DNA of 27,631 nt from a virus (Duplodnaviria; Caudoviricetes): the IMG/VR virus record IMGVR_UViG_3300044448_000824, positions 1 to 27,631 of that record, one strand, 5' to 3'. The position numbers were made by a program, and so were the translations under genes. This document shows, piece by piece, positions 1 to 9,801 of this stretch. Below the pieces are notes generated by a model. The model was not told the DNA's origin, searched no databases, and worked only from the letters and a program-made list of their open reading frames with translations. Position 1 is the stretch's first letter. Each line of letters starts with the position of its first letter.

Positions 1-135
1 AGAAGAATAGGTCAAGAGCAAGCTATGGCTGATGCTTTTGCAAAAGCCAAGCGTGACCACAAGTGGTCGCAATTACGTATGAAGGCAAAGCAAATCAAGT
101 CCAATGTTGGACCTAACAATGGAGATAAAAAATGA
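1..135 (+). CDS. Partial (5'-truncated) hypothetical protein; reads through repeat copy 1
   Basis: Frame 1 is open from base 1 (RRIGQEQAMADAFAKAKRDHKWSQLRMKAKQIKSNVGPNNGDKK*). Its TGA at 133-135 overlaps the next ATG (ATGA coupling). Confidence 0.55.
   Translation, partial: RRIGQEQAMADAFAKAKRDHKWSQLRMKAKQIKSNVGPNNGDKK
97..125 (+). repeat. Palindromic gene-boundary element, copy 1 (core GTCCAATGTTGGAC 99-112, then CTAACAATGGAGA with RBS)
   Basis: Read directly; matches the copies at 278, 799, 1588 and 3936. Confidence 0.95.
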
Positions 136-269
136 GTACATTAGAAAAAATTGGCATGTGGGTTTTCTTTTCCCCGATCATATATGTTTTTGCAATGAGT
201 GTTAATCTGCACCTAGTAAGACTAGGCGTTACTGATTTTACACTTCCATTTCTATGGAAATTTATTTAG
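132..269 (+). CDS. Small hydrophobic (membrane) protein, 45 aa
   Basis: GGAG RBS at 121-124, ATG at 132, MSTLEKIGMWVFFSPIIYVFAMSVNLHLVRLGVTDFTLPFLWKFI*, TAG at 267-269. It fills the interval between repeat copies 1 and 2 exactly. Not in the ORF track (below its size cutoff). Confidence 0.7.
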   Translation: MSTLEKIGMWVFFSPIIYVFAMSVNLHLVRLGVTDFTLPFLWKFI

Positions 270-270
270 C

Positions 271-304
271 TAACTAAGTCCAACGTTGGACCTAACAATG
301 GAGA
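271..304 (+). repeat. Palindromic gene-boundary element, copy 2 (perfect 14-bp palindrome GTCCAACGTTGGAC 278-291)
   Basis: TAACTAAGTCCAACGTTGGACCTAACAATGGAGA begins 2 nt after the upstream stop and ends in the RBS of the ATG at 310. Confidence 0.95.
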
Positions 305-309
305 TAAAA

Positions 310-720
310 ATGACTAACGAAGTATCACGAGATGAACTCATGAATTCCTATAGCGATCTACACAAAGATGTGTGGGGATGTAGGCCTCTGGTACACACGA
401 TGAAATGGGTTCGTAGCATGTCTGATGCTCAGTTTAATGAGCATTGGGATGGGTTGGTTGCTACTCTCACAGAGCAAGAGGAGGAAGACCGAGAGCGTAG
501 TGAGCAAAGCATGTATACTCTTATGGGTAGGATTGAGACATTAGTTGGTCCTACGACTAGTCGGCAGGATGTCTTGCGTTGGTTAGCTGATGCTAGTGGC
601 AACTCTTATGGAGGTTTCTATGATTGGGAACAAACTCTGTTTGAAAATGGAGTTAGGGAAATTGCCCATCAACGTAAGGTTAAGGATTGGGTAGGTATTG
701 AGTATTTCAACAGAGCATAA
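310..720 (+). CDS. Hypothetical phage early protein, 136 aa
   Basis: The track ORF 286..720 starts at a TTG inside the repeat; ATG 310 with GGAG at 300-303 is the better start. YSDLHKDVWGCRP resembles the SDxHKDxYGxRP motif I recall from uncharacterised phage early proteins. Confidence 0.8.
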   Translation: MTNEVSRDELMNSYSDLHKDVWGCRPLVHTMKWVRSMSDAQFNEHWDGLVATLTEQEEEDRERSEQSMYTLMGRIETLVGPTTSRQDVLRWLADASGNSYGGFYDWEQTLFENGVREIAHQRKVKDWVGIEYFNRA

Positions 721-740
721 TCACTTTAGATATATCTTAC

Positions 741-779
741 GTAATATATACTTGACACTTTAGTAAAAGTATATATTAC
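741..779. repeat. Perfect 13-bp inverted repeat GTAATATATACTT / AAGTATATATTAC with a 13-nt spacer; extends imperfectly to about 728-791
   Basis: Arms at 741-753 and 767-779 read directly. Outer AGATATATCT (728-737) and AGATACATCT (782-791) extend the symmetry. Confidence 0.85.
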
Positions 780-780
780 T
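752..780 (+). promoter_or_regulatory. Possible sigma70-type promoter (perfect -35 TTGACA 752-757, weak -10)
   Basis: TTGACA lies in an AT-rich intergenic stretch, but the -10 candidates are poor (TATTAC at 16-nt spacing, TATATT at 14-nt spacing). Confidence 0.4.
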
Positions 781-791
781 TAGATACATCT

Positions 792-825
792 TAACTAAGT
801 CCAACATTGGACCTAACAATGGAGA
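792..825 (+). repeat. Palindromic gene-boundary element, copy 3 (core GTCCAACATTGGAC 799-812)
   Basis: TAACTAAGTCCAACATTGGACCTAACAATGGAGA is identical to copy 2 at 33/34 positions and ends in the RBS of the ATG at 831. Confidence 0.95.
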
Positions 826-830
826 ATAAC

Positions 831-920
831 ATGGAAGAACTTAACGTATTGCAGATACTAGCTATCTGTTGGTTTGTAGTAGCATTAGGTTTAATTGTAA
901 CTTGCTTTAGGGATAACTAA
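831..920 (+). CDS. Small single-transmembrane peptide, 29 aa
   Basis: GGAG RBS at 821-824, MEELNVLQILAICWFVVALGLIVTCFRDN*; its TAA (918-920) is 1 nt before the next ATG. Confidence 0.6.
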   Translation: MEELNVLQILAICWFVVALGLIVTCFRDN

Positions 921-921
921 A

Positions 922-1587
922 ATGATTAAGGATTTGTTTCGGTTCTGTGATGACATAGGCATGTTCGCCAGCGATAGGCCAATCAATGATGTAGGATCTG
1001 TGAAAGGATCTTGTGACCATCGGACTAGTTTCTGTGATGAGGACTGCTATAACGTTAAGCTGTATAGGATGTATCCCAACATGGGCAAACGTGATGAACG
1101 CTGTGAACATGAGTGGCAACAGGTGTCTGGTGATGCGGTGCGTACCTATCTATCACGCAAGAAGAAGCAGACTAAACGTTCTAGGCATATGACTAGAGGC
1201 GAAGCTATCAAGGATTTACCTGATGTCTATCGTGTTAAAGAAATAGCATTAGCTACACCTGAAACTGTATGGTGGGTTCCTACTAGAGCATGGCGTAATA
1301 CATTGCTACGTGAGCTAATCCAGATAGAGCTATTCCCTATTCCAAACATAGCTCTCAATGCGTCACTTGATCCATCCAATACACAGGATGAGGAGGACAG
1401 TTTGATTGCTGATGGTTGGAACATCATGTACTTTGGTGATGATACAAAGTATGCAGGTAAAGGTGAAGCATTCAAGTGTCCTAAGACATGGAAGAAAATG
1501 TCTGGACATTGCGCTGTATGTAAGGCAGGATGCTTTAGTCAGACTACTATAGGCAAGCGAGTGACAGTTCACTTATCATCTCACTAA
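922..1587 (+). CDS. GP88-like Cys-rich (putative Fe-S / radical-SAM-related) phage protein
   Basis: N-terminal C-x6-C-x3-CY (SCDHRTSFCDEDCY), RHMTRGE, WVPTR, NIALNASLD and C-terminal CP...CxxCxxxC match the GP88 family pattern as I recall it. Confidence 0.6.
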   Translation: MIKDLFRFCDDIGMFASDRPINDVGSVKGSCDHRTSFCDEDCYNVKLYRMYPNMGKRDERCEHEWQQVSGDAVRTYLSRKKKQTKRSRHMTRGEAIKDLPDVYRVKEIALATPETVWWVPTRAWRNTLLRELIQIELFPIPNIALNASLDPSNTQDEEDSLIADGWNIMYFGDDTKYAGKGEAFKCPKTWKKMSGHCAVCKAGCFSQTTIGKRVTVHLSSH

Positions 1588-1614
1588 GTCCAACATTGGA
1601 CCTAACATTGGAGA
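1583..1614 (+). repeat. Palindromic gene-boundary element, copy 4 (core GTCCAACATTGGAC 1588-1601)
   Basis: ACTAAGTCCAACATTGGACCTAACATTGGAGA; its TAA (1585-1587) is the stop of the upstream gene and its GGAG is the RBS of the ATG at 1622. Confidence 0.95.
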
Positions 1615-1621
1615 AAGTACA

Positions 1622-2380
1622 ATGGAAATAACCAAAGGTAGTACAATAGCAGTATGGTTTTCTTGTGGATCAGCATCAGCAGTAGCTAGTAAATTAATCG
1701 TAGAAAAGTATGGGGATACATGCGATATAAGGATACTGAATAATCCTGTAGTGGAAGAGCATGAAGACAACCTAAGATTTCTTAAGGATGTACAGGATTG
1801 GCTAGGTCATCCTATAGAAAGTGTTGTTAATCCAGACTACCCTACAGCATCAGCAATGGATGTATGGCAAAAGAAACGCTACATGTCTGGCGTAGCAGGT
1901 GCACCATGTACACTAGAACTTAAGAAACGTGCTAGACAGCATTGGGAAAATAACAATCATGTGGATTGGCACGTGTTAGGATTTACTTCTGAGGAAGTTA
2001 AGAGACACGAAAGATTTACACTTACAGAAAGGAGTAATGTTATACCTATACTTATCGAAGAGAACTATTCTAAACAGGATTGTTATGATCACCTATTGCG
2101 TGATGGAATAGAACCACCTGTTATCTATAAGTTAGGATATCCTAATGCTAACTGTATAGGATGTGTTAAGGCAACGTCACCTACATACTGGAATCACGTT
2201 AGGTCTGTACATCCAGATGTGTTTGAACAGAGGGCAGTACAGTCTCGTGACATAGGTACTAGGTTAGTGAGACATAAAGGAAAGCGTATCTTTCTAGACG
2301 AGCTACCTAGTGATGCTATAGGTAGACCAATGAAGAACTTAGACTTTGAATGTGGCATCTTTTGTGAGGAGATAAAGTAA
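1622..2380 (+). CDS. Phosphoadenosine phosphosulfate (PAPS) reductase-like PP-loop protein
   Basis: N-terminal AVWFSCGSASAVA (PP-loop variant), PCTLELKK, LGF...E..R, LGYPNANCIGCVK and C-terminal ECGIFC are typical of phage PAPS-reductase-family proteins. Confidence 0.75.
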   Translation: MEITKGSTIAVWFSCGSASAVASKLIVEKYGDTCDIRILNNPVVEEHEDNLRFLKDVQDWLGHPIESVVNPDYPTASAMDVWQKKRYMSGVAGAPCTLELKKRARQHWENNNHVDWHVLGFTSEEVKRHERFTLTERSNVIPILIEENYSKQDCYDHLLRDGIEPPVIYKLGYPNANCIGCVKATSPTYWNHVRSVHPDVFEQRAVQSRDIGTRLVRHKGKRIFLDELPSDAIGRPMKNLDFECGIFCEEIK

Positions 2381-2536
2381 ATGAGTACGTATAAATCATC
2401 TATATCTTACATGCGTAATAAAATTGGTCCGTTATCTGAGGCTAGTAATGAAACTTTATGTAGATATATATGTTATTTAGAGGTAGAGTTGGTAGCATTG
2501 GAAAAAGATTTTACTGATAAGGAGTCAGCACAATGA
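2381..2536 (+). CDS. Small hypothetical protein, 51 aa
   Basis: ATG directly follows the upstream stop; MSTYKSSISYMRNKIGPL...DKESAQ*; ATGA-coupled to the next ORF. Not in the track. Confidence 0.55.
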   Translation: MSTYKSSISYMRNKIGPLSEASNETLCRYICYLEVELVALEKDFTDKESAQ

Positions 2537-2670
2537 GTTTACATCCACAGATAGCAAGTCAGTTAGAGGACATAGTTGATGACCTCATGGCAGAGGGCTA
2601 TACAGAAGAGGAAGCTATTGATATAGCATGGACTAGGTTTAATGGTTGGAGCGAGGTGAAAGCAAAATGA
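2533..2670 (+). CDS. Small acidic hypothetical protein, 45 aa
   Basis: AAGGAG RBS upstream; MSLHPQIASQLEDIVDDLMAEGYTEEEAIDIAWTRFNGWSEVKAK*; ATGA overlaps at both ends. Not in the track. Confidence 0.65.
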   Translation: MSLHPQIASQLEDIVDDLMAEGYTEEEAIDIAWTRFNGWSEVKAK

Positions 2671-2858
2671 TATACAACAAGGAAGCTAGGGAATATATAA
2701 TGAATTATTTCGTTATGATGTACAAGTGTTGGAGATGTGGGGAAGAGTGGTGTATGGGACATGACTGTGCTTGTGATGACCGCTGTCCAGAATGTGACGC
2801 TACGAATGAATACGTAGCTGTAGAAGAGGTTAACTTTTTAGGAGTGAAAGCAAAATGA
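2656..2858 (+). repeat. 15-bp direct repeat GTGAAAGCAAAATGA (2656-2670 and 2844-2858) bracketing one ORF
   Basis: Exact 15/15 match read directly; each copy contains an overlapping stop/start (ATGA). Confidence 0.85.
2667..2858 (+). CDS. Small Cys-rich zinc-ribbon-like protein, about 63 aa
   Basis: CWRC...CDDRCPEC; ATG 2667 (ATGA coupling, GAGG upstream) is preferred over the track start at 2646. Confidence 0.7.
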   Translation: MIYNKEAREYIMNYFVMMYKCWRCGEEWCMGHDCACDDRCPECDATNEYVAVEEVNFLGVKAK

Positions 2859-3466
2859 CTAGCTGTAATAAGTTCATAGGCTGGCCTGACCAAATGCATA
2901 CCAAGTATTCTGTGGTTGAGATACCATACGAAGCTACAAAAGACTGGATACTAAATATTCACTATGCCAAGCGTATGCCATCTATCAGCTATGCTTATGG
3001 TCTGTACCTTTACGATGAGATGGTAGGCATGGTGTCTTATGGTAGCCCTGCTTCACCTGCTTTATGTAAAGGTATCTGTGGTGAGGAACACCGGGCTGAT
3101 GTCATTGAATTGAACAGGCTTGTTCTCAAGGACAACCTACCTAATGAAGCTAGTTTTTTGGTAGGTAAATCACTGAAGCTACTGCCACAACCTAAAGTGG
3201 TGGTGTCTTACGCCGACACTGCTCAAGATCATTTAGGTATTATCTATCAAGCTACCAATTTTCTGTTCACTGGTACAACTAAAGCCCGGACAGATATAGC
3301 AGGTAAGGATGGTAAGCATTCACGGCATCACTTAGGGGATAAGACTAAACGTATACCTCGTAGTGCCAAACACAGATATGTATATTTTATCGGTAACAAA
3401 AAGCAGAAGAAAGTATTACGTAATGCTTTACGGTATGAGATACATGACAACTACCCTAAATTTTGA
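2855..3466 (+). CDS. mom: Mom-like GNAT-fold DNA adenine modification protein
   Basis: Motifs HY..R, YGL...MVG..SYG.P, IELNRL, NEASFLVG.SL, VVSYAD...H.GIIYQATNF..TG and KHRYVY are characteristic of phage Mu Mom homologues. Confidence 0.75.
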   Translation: MTSCNKFIGWPDQMHTKYSVVEIPYEATKDWILNIHYAKRMPSISYAYGLYLYDEMVGMVSYGSPASPALCKGICGEEHRADVIELNRLVLKDNLPNEASFLVGKSLKLLPQPKVVVSYADTAQDHLGIIYQATNFLFTGTTKARTDIAGKDGKHSRHHLGDKTKRIPRSAKHRYVYFIGNKKQKKVLRNALRYEIHDNYPKF

Positions 3467-3479
3467 AAGGATTATTATA

Positions 3480-3665
3480 ATGACTATAGACCACATAGGT
3501 AACAGTTCACTGGCGTATGACTCAATCAGCAATGTACTGAGACATAAGGACAAGATCAGTCATGCACATAAAGTGGAGACAGGAGCACCTGTACCACTGG
3601 AAAAGAAAGACACTATACAACCATCAAAGGAGGGGCTAGGCAAGCACATCGATATTACTACTTGA
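3480..3665 (+). CDS. Hypothetical protein, about 61 aa
   Basis: ATG 3480 follows an AAAGGA RBS just after the Mom-like stop; the track start at 3363 would overlap Mom by about 100 nt. Confidence 0.55.
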   Translation: MTIDHIGNSSLAYDSISNVLRHKDKISHAHKVETGAPVPLEKKDTIQPSKEGLGKHIDITT

Positions 3666-3690
3666 CACTATTAACAAACAATAATATATT
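3662..3690 (+). promoter_or_regulatory. Host sigma70-type promoter TTGACA-17 nt-TATATT
   Basis: -35 at 3662-3667 and -10 at 3685-3690, optimal spacing, AT-rich context, followed by an AGGAGA RBS and ATG 3722. Confidence 0.75.
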
Positions 3691-3721
3691 AATCATATAA
3701 TTAACATAGGAGATTATTAAA

Positions 3722-3928
3722 ATGGCTACAACATCAACACTTATCGTAAGAGTAAACCGTATCACTAACGCTAGAAGCATAGTGGAAGCAGACAACAAAG
3801 CTACTGCATCAGGTGGTGATACACGAGGTAGGTTGTATCAGGTGTACAAAGGTAGAAGTATTCCTTTCATCCATAAGGACATGGTGCAAGGTGTACGTGA
3901 TGGCAGAACAGGCAGGTTTGTTGCCTAG
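3722..3928 (+). CDS. Small basic hypothetical protein, 68 aa
   Basis: Strong RBS (AGGAGA) and its own promoter; ends in RDGRTGRFVA immediately before repeat copy 5. Confidence 0.75.
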   Translation: MATTSTLIVRVNRITNARSIVEADNKATASGGDTRGRLYQVYKGRSIPFIHKDMVQGVRDGRTGRFVA

Positions 3929-3931
3929 TAA

Positions 3932-3957
3932 TTAGGTCCAACATTGGACTTAACAAT
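3932..3957. repeat. Palindromic element, copy 5 (core GTCCAACATTGGAC 3936-3949), arms in inverted configuration, no fused RBS
   Basis: TTAGGTCCAACATTGGACTTAACAAT; the reverse complement TTAAGTCCAATGTTGGACCTAA matches copy 1. Confidence 0.9.
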
Positions 3958-3986
3958 TAAGTGATCTTAGTATAGGGATGGTGATT

Positions 3987-4166
3987 ATGAAGATACGTAG
4001 AGTAAACCCAGTAGCAAAGGCAGTAGCTCGTAATCGCCCCCGTACTCAGGTTATACCTAACAAAAAAGGTAAAGGTTCATATAACAGAAAGAAAGGACGA
4101 GAGGATGCAGTCTCAGTCACAATATCAAAAGATGCGTATAACAAAATTAACAACACCGAAACCTAA
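3987..4166 (+). CDS. arfA: ArfA-like (alternative ribosome-rescue factor A) protein
   Basis: NPVAKAV...RTQVIPNKKGKGSYNRKK aligns with the E. coli ArfA core RQRVEKNKKGKGSYMRK. Start at 3987 or 3978. Confidence 0.7.
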   Translation: MKIRRVNPVAKAVARNRPRTQVIPNKKGKGSYNRKKGREDAVSVTISKDAYNKINNTET

Positions 4167-4239
4167 ACGTGACGATTGGAAACGCGAGAGGCGTAAGTTA
4201 CGTAGAGCAAAACAACAAACACAACAGATTGGACAGTAA
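4105..4239 (+). CDS. Small highly basic protein, 44 aa, overlapping the ArfA-like 3' end
   Basis: Purine-rich RBS (AAGGACGAGAGG); MQSQSQYQKMRITKLTTPKPKRDDWKRERRKLRRAKQQTQQIGQ*; stop 1 nt before ATG 4241. Confidence 0.5.
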   Translation: MQSQSQYQKMRITKLTTPKPKRDDWKRERRKLRRAKQQTQQIGQ

Positions 4240-4240
4240 C

Positions 4241-5047
4241 ATGATGAACACATATGGACACGCAGAGTTTGACATAGACTATGTAACAACAGAGCGATCA
4301 GACAAACACAAGTATGTCATTCGTACTGACACAGATGAATGTATTGGTATGGTCAACAGTACCTACACTGGTACGTCACATCCAGATTACTTTGGTAAGA
4401 TGCGTGAGCAGTGGATGAACACACTGCAACCTGAGAAGTATGACATCAAGACTAGGACAGCAGGTAATGGGGCATGGGCATTGGAAACAGTTACCTTCCC
4501 TGACCTCAAAGGTGTGGTTGAAACTAAGAAGCATAAGACAGAGACAGCTATGCAGTTGAACTACTGGCACAGTATCAATGGCAGTACGTCTAACAACTTT
4601 GTAGGTGGGCTGATAGATTTCTTCTGTACGAATGGTATGGTAACAGGTGACTACTCTGTGTTGAAGAAAAGAAACACAAAGAACTTTGACCTGTCTACCT
4701 TTGCTGATAAGGCAGGTGGTATGATTGCAGGATACAGTGAGCATAACGCATGGTGTCAGAGACTGGCTGAGAAGGAAGTAGGTGTAGTTTCTGTAGGTAT
4801 GATGATTGATTCACTAATGCCTTATCGTAAAGCTACAAAGATGATGCAATCAATACACAAGGAGATAGAGGTTAGAGGCTGTAACATGTGGGCTGTGTAC
4901 TCAGCTATGACACAGTACGCTACTCACAGTGACAGGTTTGAGTTTCGTAAGACCAACAATGATACTCAGGTACAGCGTCAGTTTAACCGCAACCTAGAGG
5001 TAGCTAAGTGGGTAGAACACCCATCATTTTTAGAGATGGCTGCCTGA
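4241..5047 (+). CDS. DUF932/DUF945-like (TIGR03299-type) phage protein
   Basis: VIRTDT..IG.V...Y, HSINGS, FFCTNGMV and N.WAVYSAMTQYATH motifs. ATG 4241 is preferred over GTG 4169. Confidence 0.65.
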   Translation: MMNTYGHAEFDIDYVTTERSDKHKYVIRTDTDECIGMVNSTYTGTSHPDYFGKMREQWMNTLQPEKYDIKTRTAGNGAWALETVTFPDLKGVVETKKHKTETAMQLNYWHSINGSTSNNFVGGLIDFFCTNGMVTGDYSVLKKRNTKNFDLSTFADKAGGMIAGYSEHNAWCQRLAEKEVGVVSVGMMIDSLMPYRKATKMMQSIHKEIEVRGCNMWAVYSAMTQYATHSDRFEFRKTNNDTQVQRQFNRNLEVAKWVEHPSFLEMAA

Positions 5048-5048
5048 T

Positions 5049-5315
5049 ATGTTGGATGGTGATAAAGAAAACTTACTTAGCTGGTGGTACAGCCTACCTG
5101 ATAACTGGGCAGGTTCATACAAAGAGGATGACAGAGGTGTGGTCACACTCACAGTATTTAAAAAACCATCAGCAGATAGTACGAAAGAAAGTATAAACAA
5201 TCAACTACAACGTGCTAGAGGTAGAGCACCTAAGAAAGAGTATGGAGGTTACGATGGACAAGATCCCACTAAGTATGGAGATTGGCAACACAATGGTAGA
5301 TGTACAGATTTTTAA
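5049..5315 (+). CDS. Protein with C-terminal DUF1674 / SDHAF4 (Sdh8)-like domain
   Basis: The C-terminus KEYGGYDGQDPTKYGDWQHNGRCTDF matches the DUF1674 signature ExGGxxGxEPTRYGDWExxGRxxDF. Confidence 0.75.
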   Translation: MLDGDKENLLSWWYSLPDNWAGSYKEDDRGVVTLTVFKKPSADSTKESINNQLQRARGRAPKKEYGGYDGQDPTKYGDWQHNGRCTDF

Positions 5316-5327
5316 GGCAGTACATTT

Positions 5328-5762
5328 ATGATAGGTGAAAGTATACTAGCAGTAGGTGCTACGATTACGTGCCTTGCCCAGAACATTTACTTTGAGGCAC
5401 GTGATCAACCTACAGTGGGACAGATGGCAGTAGCCTATGTCGTACTGAACAGGGTGCACCATCCTGCATGGCCTGATACAGTGTGTGATGTCATACGTGA
5501 AGGGCCAACATACAGTTGGAAGCAGGACTATCCTATCAGGCATAGATGCCAGTTTAGTTGGTACTGTGATGGTAAGCCTGATATACCTAAAGACCAACGT
5601 GCATGGAACAGGGCAGTGTCTGTAGCAGAGGAGGTGTACTATTCATATGGTTTAACAATCAATGTAGTGGATGGTGCTACCTTCTATCATTCAGTGGACG
5701 TTAGTCCTGCATGGAATAGAGAGTACATTACAACAATAGAAGATCATATATTTTATAGATAG
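5328..5762 (+). CDS. Cell wall hydrolase, SleB/Hydrolase_2 family
   Basis: CLAQNIYFEARDQ..GQMAVAYVVLNRV, P.TVCDVI, CQFSWYCDG, GATFYH and HIFY motifs. Confidence 0.9.
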   Translation: MIGESILAVGATITCLAQNIYFEARDQPTVGQMAVAYVVLNRVHHPAWPDTVCDVIREGPTYSWKQDYPIRHRCQFSWYCDGKPDIPKDQRAWNRAVSVAEEVYYSYGLTINVVDGATFYHSVDVSPAWNREYITTIEDHIFYR

Positions 5763-5772
5763 GAGATGATAC

Positions 5773-6051
5773 ATGGGAAAGTTTAGAAGAACACACGTTA
5801 CTATTAAAGAAGAACAGATTGACAGGATTTTAAAGTTTTTAAATAGGTCTAACACTATGGTAAACTACATTCGTAATACCCACGATGTAAGATTGTCTGA
5901 TGTACGTAGATTAGAAGAAGGTATGGATGAACTTGCAGACATGTTTCATTTGTACATACCAGACTATGATCATACAGGAGGTTATATAGAATCGTATGAT
6001 AGAATTTATGTTAGAAAACCAGAGCAAGAAGAACTGGATATAGTAACATGA
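5773..6051 (+). CDS. Hypothetical protein
   Basis: AGGAGA RBS, tight operon packing, ATGA overlap with the next gene. Confidence 0.7.
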   Translation: MGKFRRTHVTIKEEQIDRILKFLNRSNTMVNYIRNTHDVRLSDVRRLEEGMDELADMFHLYIPDYDHTGGYIESYDRIYVRKPEQEELDIVT

Positions 6052-6524
6052 ACTTATTTTTTATAGACAGATGTCCAATCAAATCAGCACAGCAACTGTG
6101 TGATAAGCATGTAGTCAAGATGGTGTTGGAGACTGCCCAGATGTGTAGCACTGCTATGCATGAGTGGGGTTTTGCACGACACCTAAAGCATGTATATAAA
6201 TCTGCCTACAAGAACCATCCTATGACTGTGTGGGTTAGGGATAACGAACATAACTTTGCATGGGCCGTGAATCATGGCCTTGAGATAGGCCGAGAGTATA
6301 CACGTAGGTATGGTAAGGTACACAAAAGTACCGCAGTACTAGCAGAGATGGATGATGGGTGGGTTAACGATGATTATAATGCACACACCACACCACCACA
6401 GTGTATGCCAGATGAGTTCAAGTGTGACGATTACGTAAAAGCATACCGTGCATACTACCGCAAAGATAAAGCACACATACTACAGTGGACAGGCAGACCT
6501 GTACCAGAATGGGTTGGAGCTTGA
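6048..6524 (+). CDS. Pyrimidine-dimer DNA glycosylase / endonuclease V-like family protein
   Basis: MNLFFID..P..SAQ..CDKHVVKMVLETAQM.STA, YK....NHP...W, EYT.RYGKVH, PPQCMP and AYRAYY motifs. Confidence 0.75.
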   Translation: MNLFFIDRCPIKSAQQLCDKHVVKMVLETAQMCSTAMHEWGFARHLKHVYKSAYKNHPMTVWVRDNEHNFAWAVNHGLEIGREYTRRYGKVHKSTAVLAEMDDGWVNDDYNAHTTPPQCMPDEFKCDDYVKAYRAYYRKDKAHILQWTGRPVPEWVGA

Positions 6525-6525
6525 C

Positions 6526-6582
6526 ATGGAATGGGAAATAATATATTTATTAATGGGTCTTTTAATGGCTGTTACATTTTGA
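6526..6582 (+). CDS. Possible 18-aa hydrophobic peptide
   Basis: GGAG at 6516-6519, MEWEIIYLLMGLLMAVTF*; it fills an otherwise empty gap. Confidence 0.3.
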   Translation: MEWEIIYLLMGLLMAVTF

Positions 6583-6594
6583 AAGGAGAATAGG

Positions 6595-6810
6595 ATGGAT
6601 AAGCCTTGGCATAAACAAAGAATACCTGATGCGTTCTTTAGAGATGAGATTGAACGTAGGTTCTGTGCGCTAACTTCTCATGTACAAGAGGAAATAAAGT
6701 CTAGGTTTACTAGACCATACTCACTTAACATAATAGAGTTCGGTGAGCAGCTAGATCGTGTTCTCTTAGAGGAAGACATTGAAACATTTACAAACTGGAA
6801 GGGAGGCTGA
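6595..6810 (+). CDS. Hypothetical protein
   Basis: AAGGAG RBS; operon packing. Confidence 0.7.
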   Translation: MDKPWHKQRIPDAFFRDEIERRFCALTSHVQEEIKSRFTRPYSLNIIEFGEQLDRVLLEEDIETFTNWKGG

Positions 6811-6813
6811 GAC

Positions 6814-7032
6814 ATGCCTAGATATGAAGTGTGCGTACTGGTAGAGCTACCTCACAATGAGGAGGTAGATGAGCTAGAGTACATGGTAGATGTGTCACAC
6901 AATATGGTGGAGACACTACAATTAGATACCATACCTAAGTTAGTACACTATGCACTTGACCATGCACGTGAAGATTATCCACACTCACGAGTGGAATTAG
7001 AATTTATAAAGGAGATACAATATGTTCACTAA
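6814..7032 (+). CDS. Hypothetical acidic protein
   Basis: GGAGG RBS; operon packing. Confidence 0.7.
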   Translation: MPRYEVCVLVELPHNEEVDELEYMVDVSHNMVETLQLDTIPKLVHYALDHAREDYPHSRVELEFIKEIQYVH

Positions 7033-7360
7033 TAAACTTACTAAGATACTATATATGGTAGTGCTAATGGTAGTGCTACCTCTCACTGCATATGCACAGA
7101 ACCCTGCACCATGTAGAGACAGGGAACAGGTGATTAAATTTTTAGAGGGTGCACATGGAGAGGAGCTTATCTTTAGAGGTATATCCGGGCGTGGTCACAT
7201 CACCCTGATACATTACAACAGCAAGACAGGCACATGGACTGCTAGTATTATCAGACCACAGAACCCCACAATGATGTGTGGTGTGGATGTAGGTAGTACA
7301 GGTGAGCTTATTGCCAATGGTGATGGTAGTACACTACAGAAAAAGAAGAAGACATGGTAG
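7022..7360 (+). CDS. Secreted/periplasmic hypothetical protein
   Basis: N-terminal signal peptide ending in AYA; C..R..V..FL...HGE and GTWT..C pattern like small alphaproteobacterial exported proteins; AAGGAG RBS. Confidence 0.7.
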   Translation: MFTNKLTKILYMVVLMVVLPLTAYAQNPAPCRDREQVIKFLEGAHGEELIFRGISGRGHITLIHYNSKTGTWTASIIRPQNPTMMCGVDVGSTGELIANGDGSTLQKKKKTW

Positions 7361-7560
7361 AGGATAGGGCATACAGTAATAGTATCTTTGAGATGGTATG
7401 GAATGCAGCCCATCACGATCCTGATTATGGTGAGCAACATGCATCAGTGGTTGCATCCATGCACAAGATACCTATAACTACGCTTATGAAAGTAGTGCGA
7501 CATGCACAACGTACACCTAAGTCTGTAGAGTGGAACAGAGTCAGTGGTAACTTTACTTAA
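7354..7560 (+). CDS. Hypothetical protein
   Basis: Co-oriented ORF filling the operon gap. Confidence 0.6.
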   Translation: MVEDRAYSNSIFEMVWNAAHHDPDYGEQHASVVASMHKIPITTLMKVVRHAQRTPKSVEWNRVSGNFT

Positions 7561-7575
7561 TAAAGGATATACATT

Positions 7576-7848
7576 ATGTTAGATGACCATGAAGGAACAA
7601 GAACAATAACTAAAACCCCATTGTACACATTCGACTGGTACATAAAATGGGTAGCAAGCATACTACTTACAGTAGGCATGGTGCTTACTGCTAATAATAT
7701 CTTTCCTGTCAACCTAATCTTTCATGCAATTGGTATTGCAGGATGGTTATGGGTGGGGTTGTTATGGAATGATAGGGCGTTGATCTTTATCAACACATTT
7801 TCTTTAGCTATACTCACTAGTAGTTTAGTTAAGATATACATACTTTAA
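7576..7848 (+). CDS. Small multi-pass membrane protein (DUF6552-like)
   Basis: DWYIKWVAS...P.NL....IG..GWLWVG.LWNDRALI..N, with about 3 hydrophobic segments; AAAGGA RBS. Confidence 0.65.
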   Translation: MLDDHEGTRTITKTPLYTFDWYIKWVASILLTVGMVLTANNIFPVNLIFHAIGIAGWLWVGLLWNDRALIFINTFSLAILTSSLVKIYIL

Positions 7849-7860
7849 AGGAGGTAATCT

Positions 7861-8898
7861 ATGAAGACAACTATATTAACACTATTACTAACATATCTTG
7901 TTGCATCTACATCAATGGGTTTAGCAGCAGATCGTAAGCAAATAAGAGTAGTGGGTTCATCTACAGTGTATCCATTTGCAACTACAGTTGCTGAGAACTT
8001 TGGTAAGCAAACTAAATATAAGACTCCTGTTATTGAAAGCACTGGATCTGGAGGAGGAATGAAGATATTCTGTTCTGGTATGGATCTAAGGTATGCTGAT
8101 GTAACGAATGCATCTAGGCGTATAAAAAAGAAAGAGTATGATAAGTGCATTAGTAATGGCGTTAGAAATATACTAGAAGTAAAGGTTGGGTATGATGGTA
8201 TAGTTCTAGCTAACAGTAAAAAAGCTAAGAAATTTAGTATGTCTTTGAGGGATGTCTTTCTTGCACTAGCAAAGGACATACCTACAGAGGATGGTAAGAC
8301 TATACCCAATCCATATACAACATGGAAGCAAATAAATCCTATGTTACCTGCTACAAAGATAGAAGTAATAGGCCCACCACCAACGTCAGGAACACGAGAT
8401 GCTTTCGTTGAGTTGGCTATGGAAGGTGGTTGTAAAACATTCAAGTGGGTTAAGGCAATGAAGAAGACAGATAAGAAAGCCTACAAGTCTTTGTGTCATA
8501 CCATACGAGAGGATGGTGTGTACATAGAAGCAGGAGAGAATGACAACATGATTGTTCATAAACTTGTAGTAAGTAAGAATATACTAGGTATCTTTGGCTT
8601 TAGTTTTCTTGACACAAATCAAGACAAAATACAAGGTAGTATAATTCAAGGCAACAAACCTACCTTTGATAACATTTCTACTGGCAAGTACCCTGTATCA
8701 AGACCCTTGTACTTCTACGTTAAAAAGAATAACATGGGTATCATTGGAGGACTACGAGAGTATGTAGAAATGTTTACCTCTGACAAAGCATCTGGTCCTG
8801 AAGGGTATCTCACTGATAAAGGACTGATACCTTTAGGTGATGTTGAACGTAGCAAAAGAAGTAAAGCTATTAAAACATTAGAAAACTTGGTAATGTAA
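7861..8898 (+). CDS. pstS: Phosphate ABC transporter substrate-binding protein PstS
   Basis: Signal peptide; IRVVGSSTVYPF, ESTGSGGG, NASR.IK, GYDGIV, PPPTSGTRDAF and YPVSRPLYFYVK motifs; AAGGAGG RBS. Confidence 0.93.
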   Translation: MKTTILTLLLTYLVASTSMGLAADRKQIRVVGSSTVYPFATTVAENFGKQTKYKTPVIESTGSGGGMKIFCSGMDLRYADVTNASRRIKKKEYDKCISNGVRNILEVKVGYDGIVLANSKKAKKFSMSLRDVFLALAKDIPTEDGKTIPNPYTTWKQINPMLPATKIEVIGPPPTSGTRDAFVELAMEGGCKTFKWVKAMKKTDKKAYKSLCHTIREDGVYIEAGENDNMIVHKLVVSKNILGIFGFSFLDTNQDKIQGSIIQGNKPTFDNISTGKYPVSRPLYFYVKKNNMGIIGGLREYVEMFTSDKASGPEGYLTDKGLIPLGDVERSKRSKAIKTLENLVM

Positions 8899-8919
8899 TA
8901 AATACTAGGAGGAATAACA

Positions 8920-9801
8920 ATGAGAGCGATACCACTAAAGAAGTTGGTCAAGCTATACTTACAGTCATCTGAGTTTAATCGCTTACGTGATCAAACAAAG
9001 TTAGACTATACTAGGTTCTTAAAGATATTGACAGACACGTTAGGTGAAACAACTGCATCTGTCGTATCAGGTAAGGACGCAAGGATGGCGTATGAAGAAT
9101 GGGTTACACGAGGCATACACCTAGCTAATCATGTGGCAGCAGTAGCTGGCATTGTGTACAGGCATGGTCAGGACATGGAGTATGTTAAGAATAATCCATT
9201 CACGCTAGTAAGGAAGCTATCACCTACTGCACGTAACACAGTATGGACACAGGATCAGGTGCGTCAGTTTCTTGATGTAGCCTATGGTGACTTTGTGTAT
9301 CGTAATGTAGGACTGATAGTGCAGATGGCCTATGAGTGGTGTCAACGTGTAGGTGACATGCGTATGTTGATATGGGATAGTATTGACTTCAATACACGTA
9401 GACTAAAACTGTTACAGTCTAAGCGTGGTGCAGAGGTACAGCTACCCATATCAGATGCGTTACTTGATATGCTTACAGAACAACGACAGGACTTTGACTT
9501 CCAGAAATATGTAGCACCTATGCCTACACCTTATGGTGGTGAATACAAACCATTCTCAATGGAACGATTGTCCAAGATAGGTAGAAAGATAATGCGACAG
9601 GCTAAACTACCAGATGAATTACGCTTGATGGATCTGCGAAGAACTGGTACAACTGAAATGGTAGAGGCAGGTGTGCCATTGCCACAGATTATGTCAGTGA
9701 CAGGTCATGCTAATCCACAGTCGGTGAAGCCTTACATAAAGAATACTTATCTTAGTGCTAACAGTGCGCTGACTGCACGACAACAGTTTAAGGAGGATTG
9801 A
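8920..9801 (+). CDS. int: Tyrosine recombinase / integrase
   Basis: Catalytic set R (CQRVGD), K (QSKRG), xDLRR (M in place of H), TGH and Y (KPY); N-terminal SAM-like binding region; AGGAGG RBS. Confidence 0.88.
   Translation: MRAIPLKKLVKLYLQSSEFNRLRDQTKLDYTRFLKILTDTLGETTASVVSGKDARMAYEEWVTRGIHLANHVAAVAGIVYRHGQDMEYVKNNPFTLVRKLSPTARNTVWTQDQVRQFLDVAYGDFVYRNVGLIVQMAYEWCQRVGDMRMLIWDSIDFNTRRLKLLQSKRGAEVQLPISDALLDMLTEQRQDFDFQKYVAPMPTPYGGEYKPFSMERLSKIGRKIMRQAKLPDELRLMDLRRTGTTEMVEAGVPLPQIMSVTGHANPQSVKPYIKNTYLSANSALTARQQFKED

Follow-up and report, generated by a model that had tools for sequence, protein, structure and literature searches.

ArfA (YhdL; PF03889; PDB 5MGP, 5MDV, 5U4I, 5H5U and 7OJ0) is a factor whose contacts are laid out in the available portions of PMC5378476 and PMC8012679. 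They comprise a basic tail in the mRNA channel, a backbone strand at residues 25-30 on RF2, a small residue at A18 and a KH motif. L19/L24/F25 bind W319/V198/F217 of RF2 (PMC5378476, same portion). The A18T variant binds and recruits RF2 but fails to activate it, and ArfA/RF2 pairs are adapted to species (PMC8012679, same portion), so that complementation in E. coli may yield a false negative. According to the available part of PMC6299226, no single residue of the ArfA basic tail is essential. The same part describes ArfT, a protein of 40 amino acids that has no hydrophobic residue at the F25 position, an altered motif and control not of the ArfA type, and that rescues ribosomes with RF1 or RF2. 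A free SmpB-tail peptide is reported in PMC4201823 to block tmRNA entry, with W147 required.

ArfA-like genes have already been annotated in phages, namely gp30 of pelagiphage HTVC027P and g10 of Citromicrobium phage RXM (available portions of PMC12753301 and PMC8953757, respectively), and expression of gp30 is high 3 h into infection and again at 12-15 h (PMC12753301, same portion). The literature search, whose coverage excluded most subscription journals, found no functional study of any phage ArfA or of an alphaproteobacterial member. The main text of PMC9038755 contains neither 'arfA' nor 'ribosome', and phages go unmentioned in the available part of PMC6514570. For the hosts, Table 1 in the accessible part of a published survey (PMC11633108) gives 0 arfA genes in 2,376 alphaproteobacterial genomes. 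The locus described below adds to the annotated phage genes the loss of RF2 contacts, a toggling GKGS loop, a link between ArfA and DUF7230, and a fixed partner gene.

An early-region gene and its control

HMO-2011-type phages are among the most abundant marine viruses. The window, meaning the whole stretch of 27,631 nucleotides that was analysed, is assigned to part of such a phage; the DNA polymerase shares 65% identity with its counterparts in HMO-2011, CRP-1 and CRP-345, an integrase is present and the G+C content is 39.7%. The polymerase supports the probable alphaproteobacterial host of the original prediction, and the inferred host is SAR116 or a roseobacter. PstS is uninformative on this point, with a best identity of 66% to sampled alphaproteobacteria. 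Neither tRNA nor tmRNA was found within the window, and Rfam gave no match above chance in positions 1-9000. The ArfA-like gene belongs to a group of small genes that precede the integrase, and the features to which the text refers are as follows.

3662..3690, plus strand: sigma-70-like promoter (TTGACA-17-TATATT, 11/12; consensus match only), ahead of ORF 3722-3928 and the cassette
3929..3957, no strand assigned: fifth copy of a palindromic 29-nt element, a repeat in front of early genes
3987..4166, plus strand: ArfA-like gene, 59 amino acids from its probable start (62 counted from 3978)
4005..4034, plus strand: NPVAK segment (N10-N19, predicted helix), which pairs with E. coli ArfA helix 15-24 and varies least within the phage family
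4038..4055, plus strand: PRTQVI stretch, aligned to residues 25-30 of ArfA (the strand extending the RF2 sheet); Pro replaces F25
4059..4094, plus strand: basic stretch NKKGKGSYNRKK, in register with the ArfA mRNA-channel segment; no KH after it
4105..4239, plus strand: partner ORF, overlapping in the +1 frame; 44-residue basic protein with a KRDDWKR helix

The basic protein of about 60 amino acids with NKKGKGSYNRK that had been read at 3978..4166 is present and belongs to a real gene: the plus-strand ORF 3978-4166 encodes 62 amino acids, with the motif at residues 28-38. Comparison with relatives indicates a genuine gene of the phage early region under purifying selection (30-codon core, pS 0.09-0.52 versus pN 0-0.01 over the seven closest distinct relatives). 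Relatives of the protein are encoded at 70 viral loci, and a wider scan went from 599 pattern matches to 219 confirmed and 80 kept. The true start is probably M4 at 3987, giving 59 amino acids, rather than 3978, because the first ATG is missing in the relatives L007 and L010 and most relatives start at the M4 position. The conserved core ends at about 4112, and the tail beyond it shares DNA with ORF 4105-4239; the last 20 or so residues are a by-product of this overlap. Past about residue 43 the tail appears to be constrained by the overlapping ORF. One of the two tail changes in L007/L010 is silent in the 4105-4239 frame, and both alter the ArfA-like protein.

As the original prediction had stated, there is no strong hairpin in the 3' part of the gene (z -0.39 and -0.82, versus -4.47 for E. 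coli arfA), and hairpin control is absent. In-gene hairpins with z below -2 occur in 11 of 12 beta/gamma genes, in 3 of 30 phage genes (a sample drawn from 66), and in none of 22 SAR11 and 5 other alphaproteobacterial genes. Sigma-70-like sites such as the one at 3662..3690 number three, against 5.2 expected in shuffles. Metatranscriptome contigs from four runs (three studies) cover the ArfA-like gene and are not counted as expression, since neither strand nor level nor the absence of DNA can be read from contigs.

The palindromic element (core TCCAAY-RTTGGA) occurs five times in the window, at 92-120, 271-299, 792-820, 1581-1609 and 3929-3957, and four of the five copies directly precede a Shine-Dalgarno-like sequence and the start codon of an early gene. 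In CRP-1 and CRP-345 the early region carries three copies apiece, one of which lies inside the partner ORF; there are none in HMO-2011 positions 1-9000, where the cassette is present. The element is a putative operator or RNA processing site.

Other genes of the window were recorded in passing. Positions 7861-8898 encode a phosphate-binding protein of the PstS type (PF12849), whose identity to sampled alphaproteobacterial ones does not exceed 66%; the word 'PstS' is absent from the main text of PMC9038755. The early region at 922-3466 holds GP88-like, PAPS-reductase-like (weak) and Mom-family genes, suggesting DNA modification. A small ORF at 5049-5315 ends in a DUF1674 domain (E 2e-11), and in its relatives in RNA contigs the upstream part is replaced.

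Homology to ArfA and altered RF2 contacts

In a Pfam search ArfA (PF03889) was the sole family at E of 1 or below. The family HMM, to which the original prediction had pointed as a check, thus returns a significant match (E 1.4e-5) that scores 24.8 bits against a gathering cut-off of 25.5, and every form of the protein tried falls just below that cut-off (24.8, 25.0 and 25.4 bits). All 25 members of the family alignment A1 match Pfam ArfA. NCBIfam gave no match for the protein, the best PHROGs hit had an E of 0.13, and a PDB search with the single sequence placed ArfA at a non-significant E of 0.46. With the A1 family profile, the significant PDB matches are ArfA chains only (E 3.8e-6 to 7e-6; next 0.67). 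The closer clade alone finds ArfA at E 0.001, and a profile that includes the motif-less forms finds it at E 0.45, where significance is lost. ArfA-bearing clusters rank first in the ESM Atlas (0.93 where 18% of members carry the family, 0.90 where 59% do), which serves as a lead only.

E. coli ArfA and the window protein align without gaps, N14 with N10 and K33 with K29, with 13 identities over 39 residues. The gap-free register spans N14-K42, and one run of eight residues is an exact match; the mRNA-channel span holds seven basic residues in the window protein and eight in E. coli ArfA. Predicted alone, at low confidence (pLDDT 70, pTM 0.26), the 59-residue form shows a helix at 8-16, which falls on ArfA helix 15-24, and no strand; a Q-V/I-V pattern is conserved at the strand position in phage cores. 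Similarity beyond the motif was scored over only the 18 residues between the aligned Asn and the motif, against 64,819 null windows. Against five alphaproteobacterial KH-bearing ArfA-like proteins a single null window scores as high, and against ten beta/gamma ArfA proteins 301 do; these scores lean upward and are partly circular because the bacterial sets were retrieved with phage-derived queries. Against E. coli ArfA alone the result is unremarkable, with 3,117 null windows (4.8%) as high. The profile matches in the PDB and the null-window scores together uphold the ArfA-like identity that had been proposed, with homology extending weakly beyond the motif, and the window protein is an ArfA homologue.

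It is not a canonical member of the family, since several of the defining features tested are absent. The positions of L19/L24/F25 are A/R/P in the window protein, which leaves no hydrophobic RF2 patch; the A18 position is K and the KH motif is missing. The RF2-specific rescue of the original prediction is accordingly not supported as stated. Among 42 distinct phage cores chosen by the gap-free pattern, position 25 is R in 19, K in 11, P in 10 and Y in 2 (R/K/P in 40 of 42), and position 18 is K or R in all 42, with an invariant Ala one position earlier. The 32 SAR11 cores have Y (31) or F (1) at position 25 and K/R at position 18 in 31. In the broader family of 681 representatives, the best 150 include 135 motif-bearing proteins, of which 76 carry an aromatic residue at position 25 and only 7 carry KH. 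The W319/V198/F217 pocket residues of RF2 are intact in four of four alphaproteobacterial RF2s.

A scan of species genomes returned 47 ArfA-like loci, many of them in Pelagibacteraceae. A short, tailless ArfA-like gene is present in 121 of 151 genomes of this SAR11 family (a count to which the unpublished G524 contributes). It encodes about 40 amino acids (Pelagibacteraceae rows of L076-L115, and L203-L231), is chromosomal and is mostly convergent on a pfkB-like gene; in the ten contexts inspected it adjoins a pfkB-nth-dapB-like run, the gene names being read from translations. SAR11 thus carries a short ArfA-like gene missed by the published survey (PMC11633108, in the part available). Across the alphaproteobacterial class at least 11 of 401 sampled genomes have an ArfA-like gene, a lower bound because often only 18 candidates were scored per large genome. 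Five of the seven matches not of SAR11 size have an NPxA-like start, F25 and KH, and these five link the phage form with E. coli ArfA.

Related peptides were also seen elsewhere. In Bacillota (Peribacillus, Paenibacillus and relatives) an N-terminal half of the S-R-x-x-W...P-x-TR-V type is joined to KKGKGSYNR (L077, L080, L081, L083, L084, L087, L091, L094, L098, L103, L117 and L120), and such proteins may connect BrfA-like with ArfA-like factors. L053 and L085 represent a distinct GEEL-x-QYL-x-FR type of KKGKGSYNRKK peptide, found in viral contigs and one Oscillospiraceae genome.

The partner gene and the variable GKGS loop

The partner ORF at 4105-4239 is conserved, unannotated and usually overlaps the ArfA-like gene. 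A +1 frameshift that would fuse the two ORFs was considered, as 29 of 29 partners lie in the +1 frame relative to the ArfA-like gene; however, a shared overlapping ATG explains the frame. Pfam and PHROGs gave the partner no family common to more than one of 17 members, the PDB gave no match, and the best ESM Atlas score (0.79) was at chance level. A likeness to the SmpB tail was first noticed by eye and then scored: the partner helix of the window reaches 36.8 on an alphaproteobacterial SmpB-tail matrix, on which none of 92,316 null 14-mers reaches 27. Only 8 of 17 partners beat their own shuffles on this score (p<0.05). Profile-profile comparison with SmpB returned a probability of 7% (P 0.005, 11 columns), and the partner profile matched SmpB in 0 of 41 genomes (a tally including the unpublished G041). 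The SmpB DKR motif is absent from the partner, whose Trp-centred helix resembles the W147-centred helix of the SmpB tail. The resemblance to the SmpB tail stays a lead, because the profile tests are weak or negative.

Orthologues of the ArfA-like gene were sought in viral contigs through the partner motif alone, which returned 113 loci in 85 distinct rows. Five rows had too little upstream DNA and four were binned as long ORFs (one wrongly); in 66 of the 76 left, an NP-x-A gene lies directly upstream of the partner. Strict KGKGSY is found in 20 of these 66 orthologues and is absent from 46, three of which are near variants; in the remaining orthologues GKGS is cleanly deleted or the tail is of the KKG[NGS]K type. 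The family comprises 1,430 clusters, and the best 120 of the 1,430 profile matches divide into 43 with the motif, 48 KKG[NGS]K, 23 deleted and 6 other. The motif state needs seven changes on a tree of 63 partner proteins (44 columns, bootstrap not settled), at least five of them forced by supported branches, so the motif has been lost, gained or recombined repeatedly. These comparisons indicate that the KGKGSY motif is dispensable within the phage family.

GKGS-deleted orthologues in the same cassette position match DUF7230 (PF23876) in 12 of 25 members, with a best E of 3.9e-6. The HMO-2011 orthologue scores 22.2 bits on this model (cut-off 27), and the window protein has no match to it. DUF7230 is named in no paper of the literature searched, most subscription journals being outside its coverage, and its link to ArfA is part of the added value of this analysis. 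HMO-2011, CRP-1 and CRP-345 have both ORFs and GKGSY in none. The ArfA-like ORF is annotated in none of these three cultivated phages and the partner only in CRP-345 (gp06); a large family has thus gone unannotated in them. Searches of CRP-2, CRP-207, HTVC033P and CRP-3 found no cassette. A weak lone family match in CRP-207 (MZ892987.1, 41134-41232, minus strand; E 1.2e-5) lies far from the early region and has no partner.

Proposed ribosome rescue, its alternatives and the described systems

About an even chance is given to the reading that the gene encodes a constitutively made, ArfT-like ribosome-rescue factor of relaxed release-factor specificity. It is favoured because the channel charge and the putative strand are kept, because the ArfA strand binds RF2 through its backbone, and because ArfT offers a precedent. 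Expression would be early, from a host promoter, and the peptide would be made constitutively without hairpin control. In non-stop ribosomes of the host, the basic tail would bind 16S rRNA and the peptide would fill the empty mRNA channel, and the QV[VI] strand would add to the release-factor sheet via backbone contacts. A release factor would then be recruited with looser specificity than by E. coli ArfA, and the peptide released by RF2 or RF1, as with ArfT. The phage would gain recycled ribosomes otherwise left on decaying host mRNA. The counter-defence against RNases that had also been proposed finds no support in these results.

The same predicted channel binding could instead serve as a plug or decoy. 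An ArfA-derived peptide that enters the channel without activating a release factor may block tmRNA-SmpB and host rescue or hold ribosomes for the phage, and the partner, with its SmpB-tail-like Trp helix, may act at the same site; the phage would then encode an inhibitor of ribosome rescue. This main rival seems somewhat unlikely. The activation determinants F25, L19, L24, A18 and N-terminal residues 1-7 are lost and the basic tail is kept, ArfA A18T recruits RF2 without activating it (PMC8012679, available portion), the free SmpB-tail peptide stops tmRNA entry (PMC4201823, available portion), and the matrix score of the partner helix exceeds that of every null 14-mer. However, ArfT rescues despite its loss of F25 (PMC6299226, available portion), the gene of SAR11 itself likewise has K/R at position 18, and the SmpB likeness was seen by eye before it was scored, with weak profile-profile support, no SmpB match in the 41 genomes, no DKR and fewer than half of the partners beating their shuffles. 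A cassette of two peptides that rewires rescue, in which tmRNA tagging is stopped by an SmpB-tail mimic and ribosomes are freed untagged by an ArfA/DUF7230 peptide that lost both GKGS and RF2 specificity, is improbable; if true, DUF7230 would be the phage branch of ArfA.

Descent from ArfA need not imply a ribosomal role. A repurposed, basic nucleic-acid-binding peptide with a non-ribosomal early function, for example one exerted jointly with the partner on phage transcripts or the palindrome, is doubtful and rated as quite unlikely. The invariant part of the family is the NP-x-A helix and not the channel motif, the GKGS loop switches state repeatedly on the partner tree, and a palindrome copy directly precedes the gene here and falls within the partner ORF of CRP-1 and CRP-345. 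Yet the GKGS-less forms keep the putative strand, KK and a basic tail, the deleted form keeps Y-x-R, the palindrome is missing from HMO-2011 1-9000 despite the cassette there, and there is no direct sign of DNA binding. A convergent origin of the lysine-rich peptide, or true kinship with ribosomal protein eL39, is very improbable: the single-sequence PDB search left ArfA short of significance and eL39 is the best PDB match of a broad profile (E 0.012), but the eight-residue exact match, the gap-free register and the bridging bacterial homologues speak against convergence. As a candidate family eL39 (PF00832) was rejected, its Pfam model matching 0 of 25 members and 0 of 4 phage genomes. Variants that occur naturally, some having F25 or GKGS and others not, make the minimal needs of release-factor recruitment testable with synthetic peptides of 40 amino acids.

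Set beside the described systems, the window protein shares with ArfA the KKGKGSY-x-RK stretch, preceded in register by a predicted helix and a putative strand. Unlike E. coli and other beta/gamma ArfA, it has a shorter N-terminus, no hydrophobic tail and an overlapping partner gene. BrfA has KH and a terminator before the stop codon (PMC8012679, available portion), both absent from the window gene, and no BrfA chain was listed in the PDB profile searches. The SAR11 gene resembles the phage gene in its N-x-x-A-K helix and in lacking both hairpin and KH, and differs in having L20 and Y/F25 in 32 of 32, a chromosomal location and no partner ORF. HTVC027P gp30 and RXM g10 are likewise small ArfA-family genes in phages of marine alphaproteobacteria, described in the available portions of their sources by annotation only; gp30 differs from the window gene in its P23 and Tyr at position 25, its place before the terminase small subunit and its want of a partner. 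ArfT, like the phage peptide, is short, has no hydrophobic residue at F25 and a variable KGKGS-like stretch, and is not controlled as ArfA is. In the available text of PMC6299226 its authors judge it independent in origin; the likeness is one of functional analogy by description and not of family.
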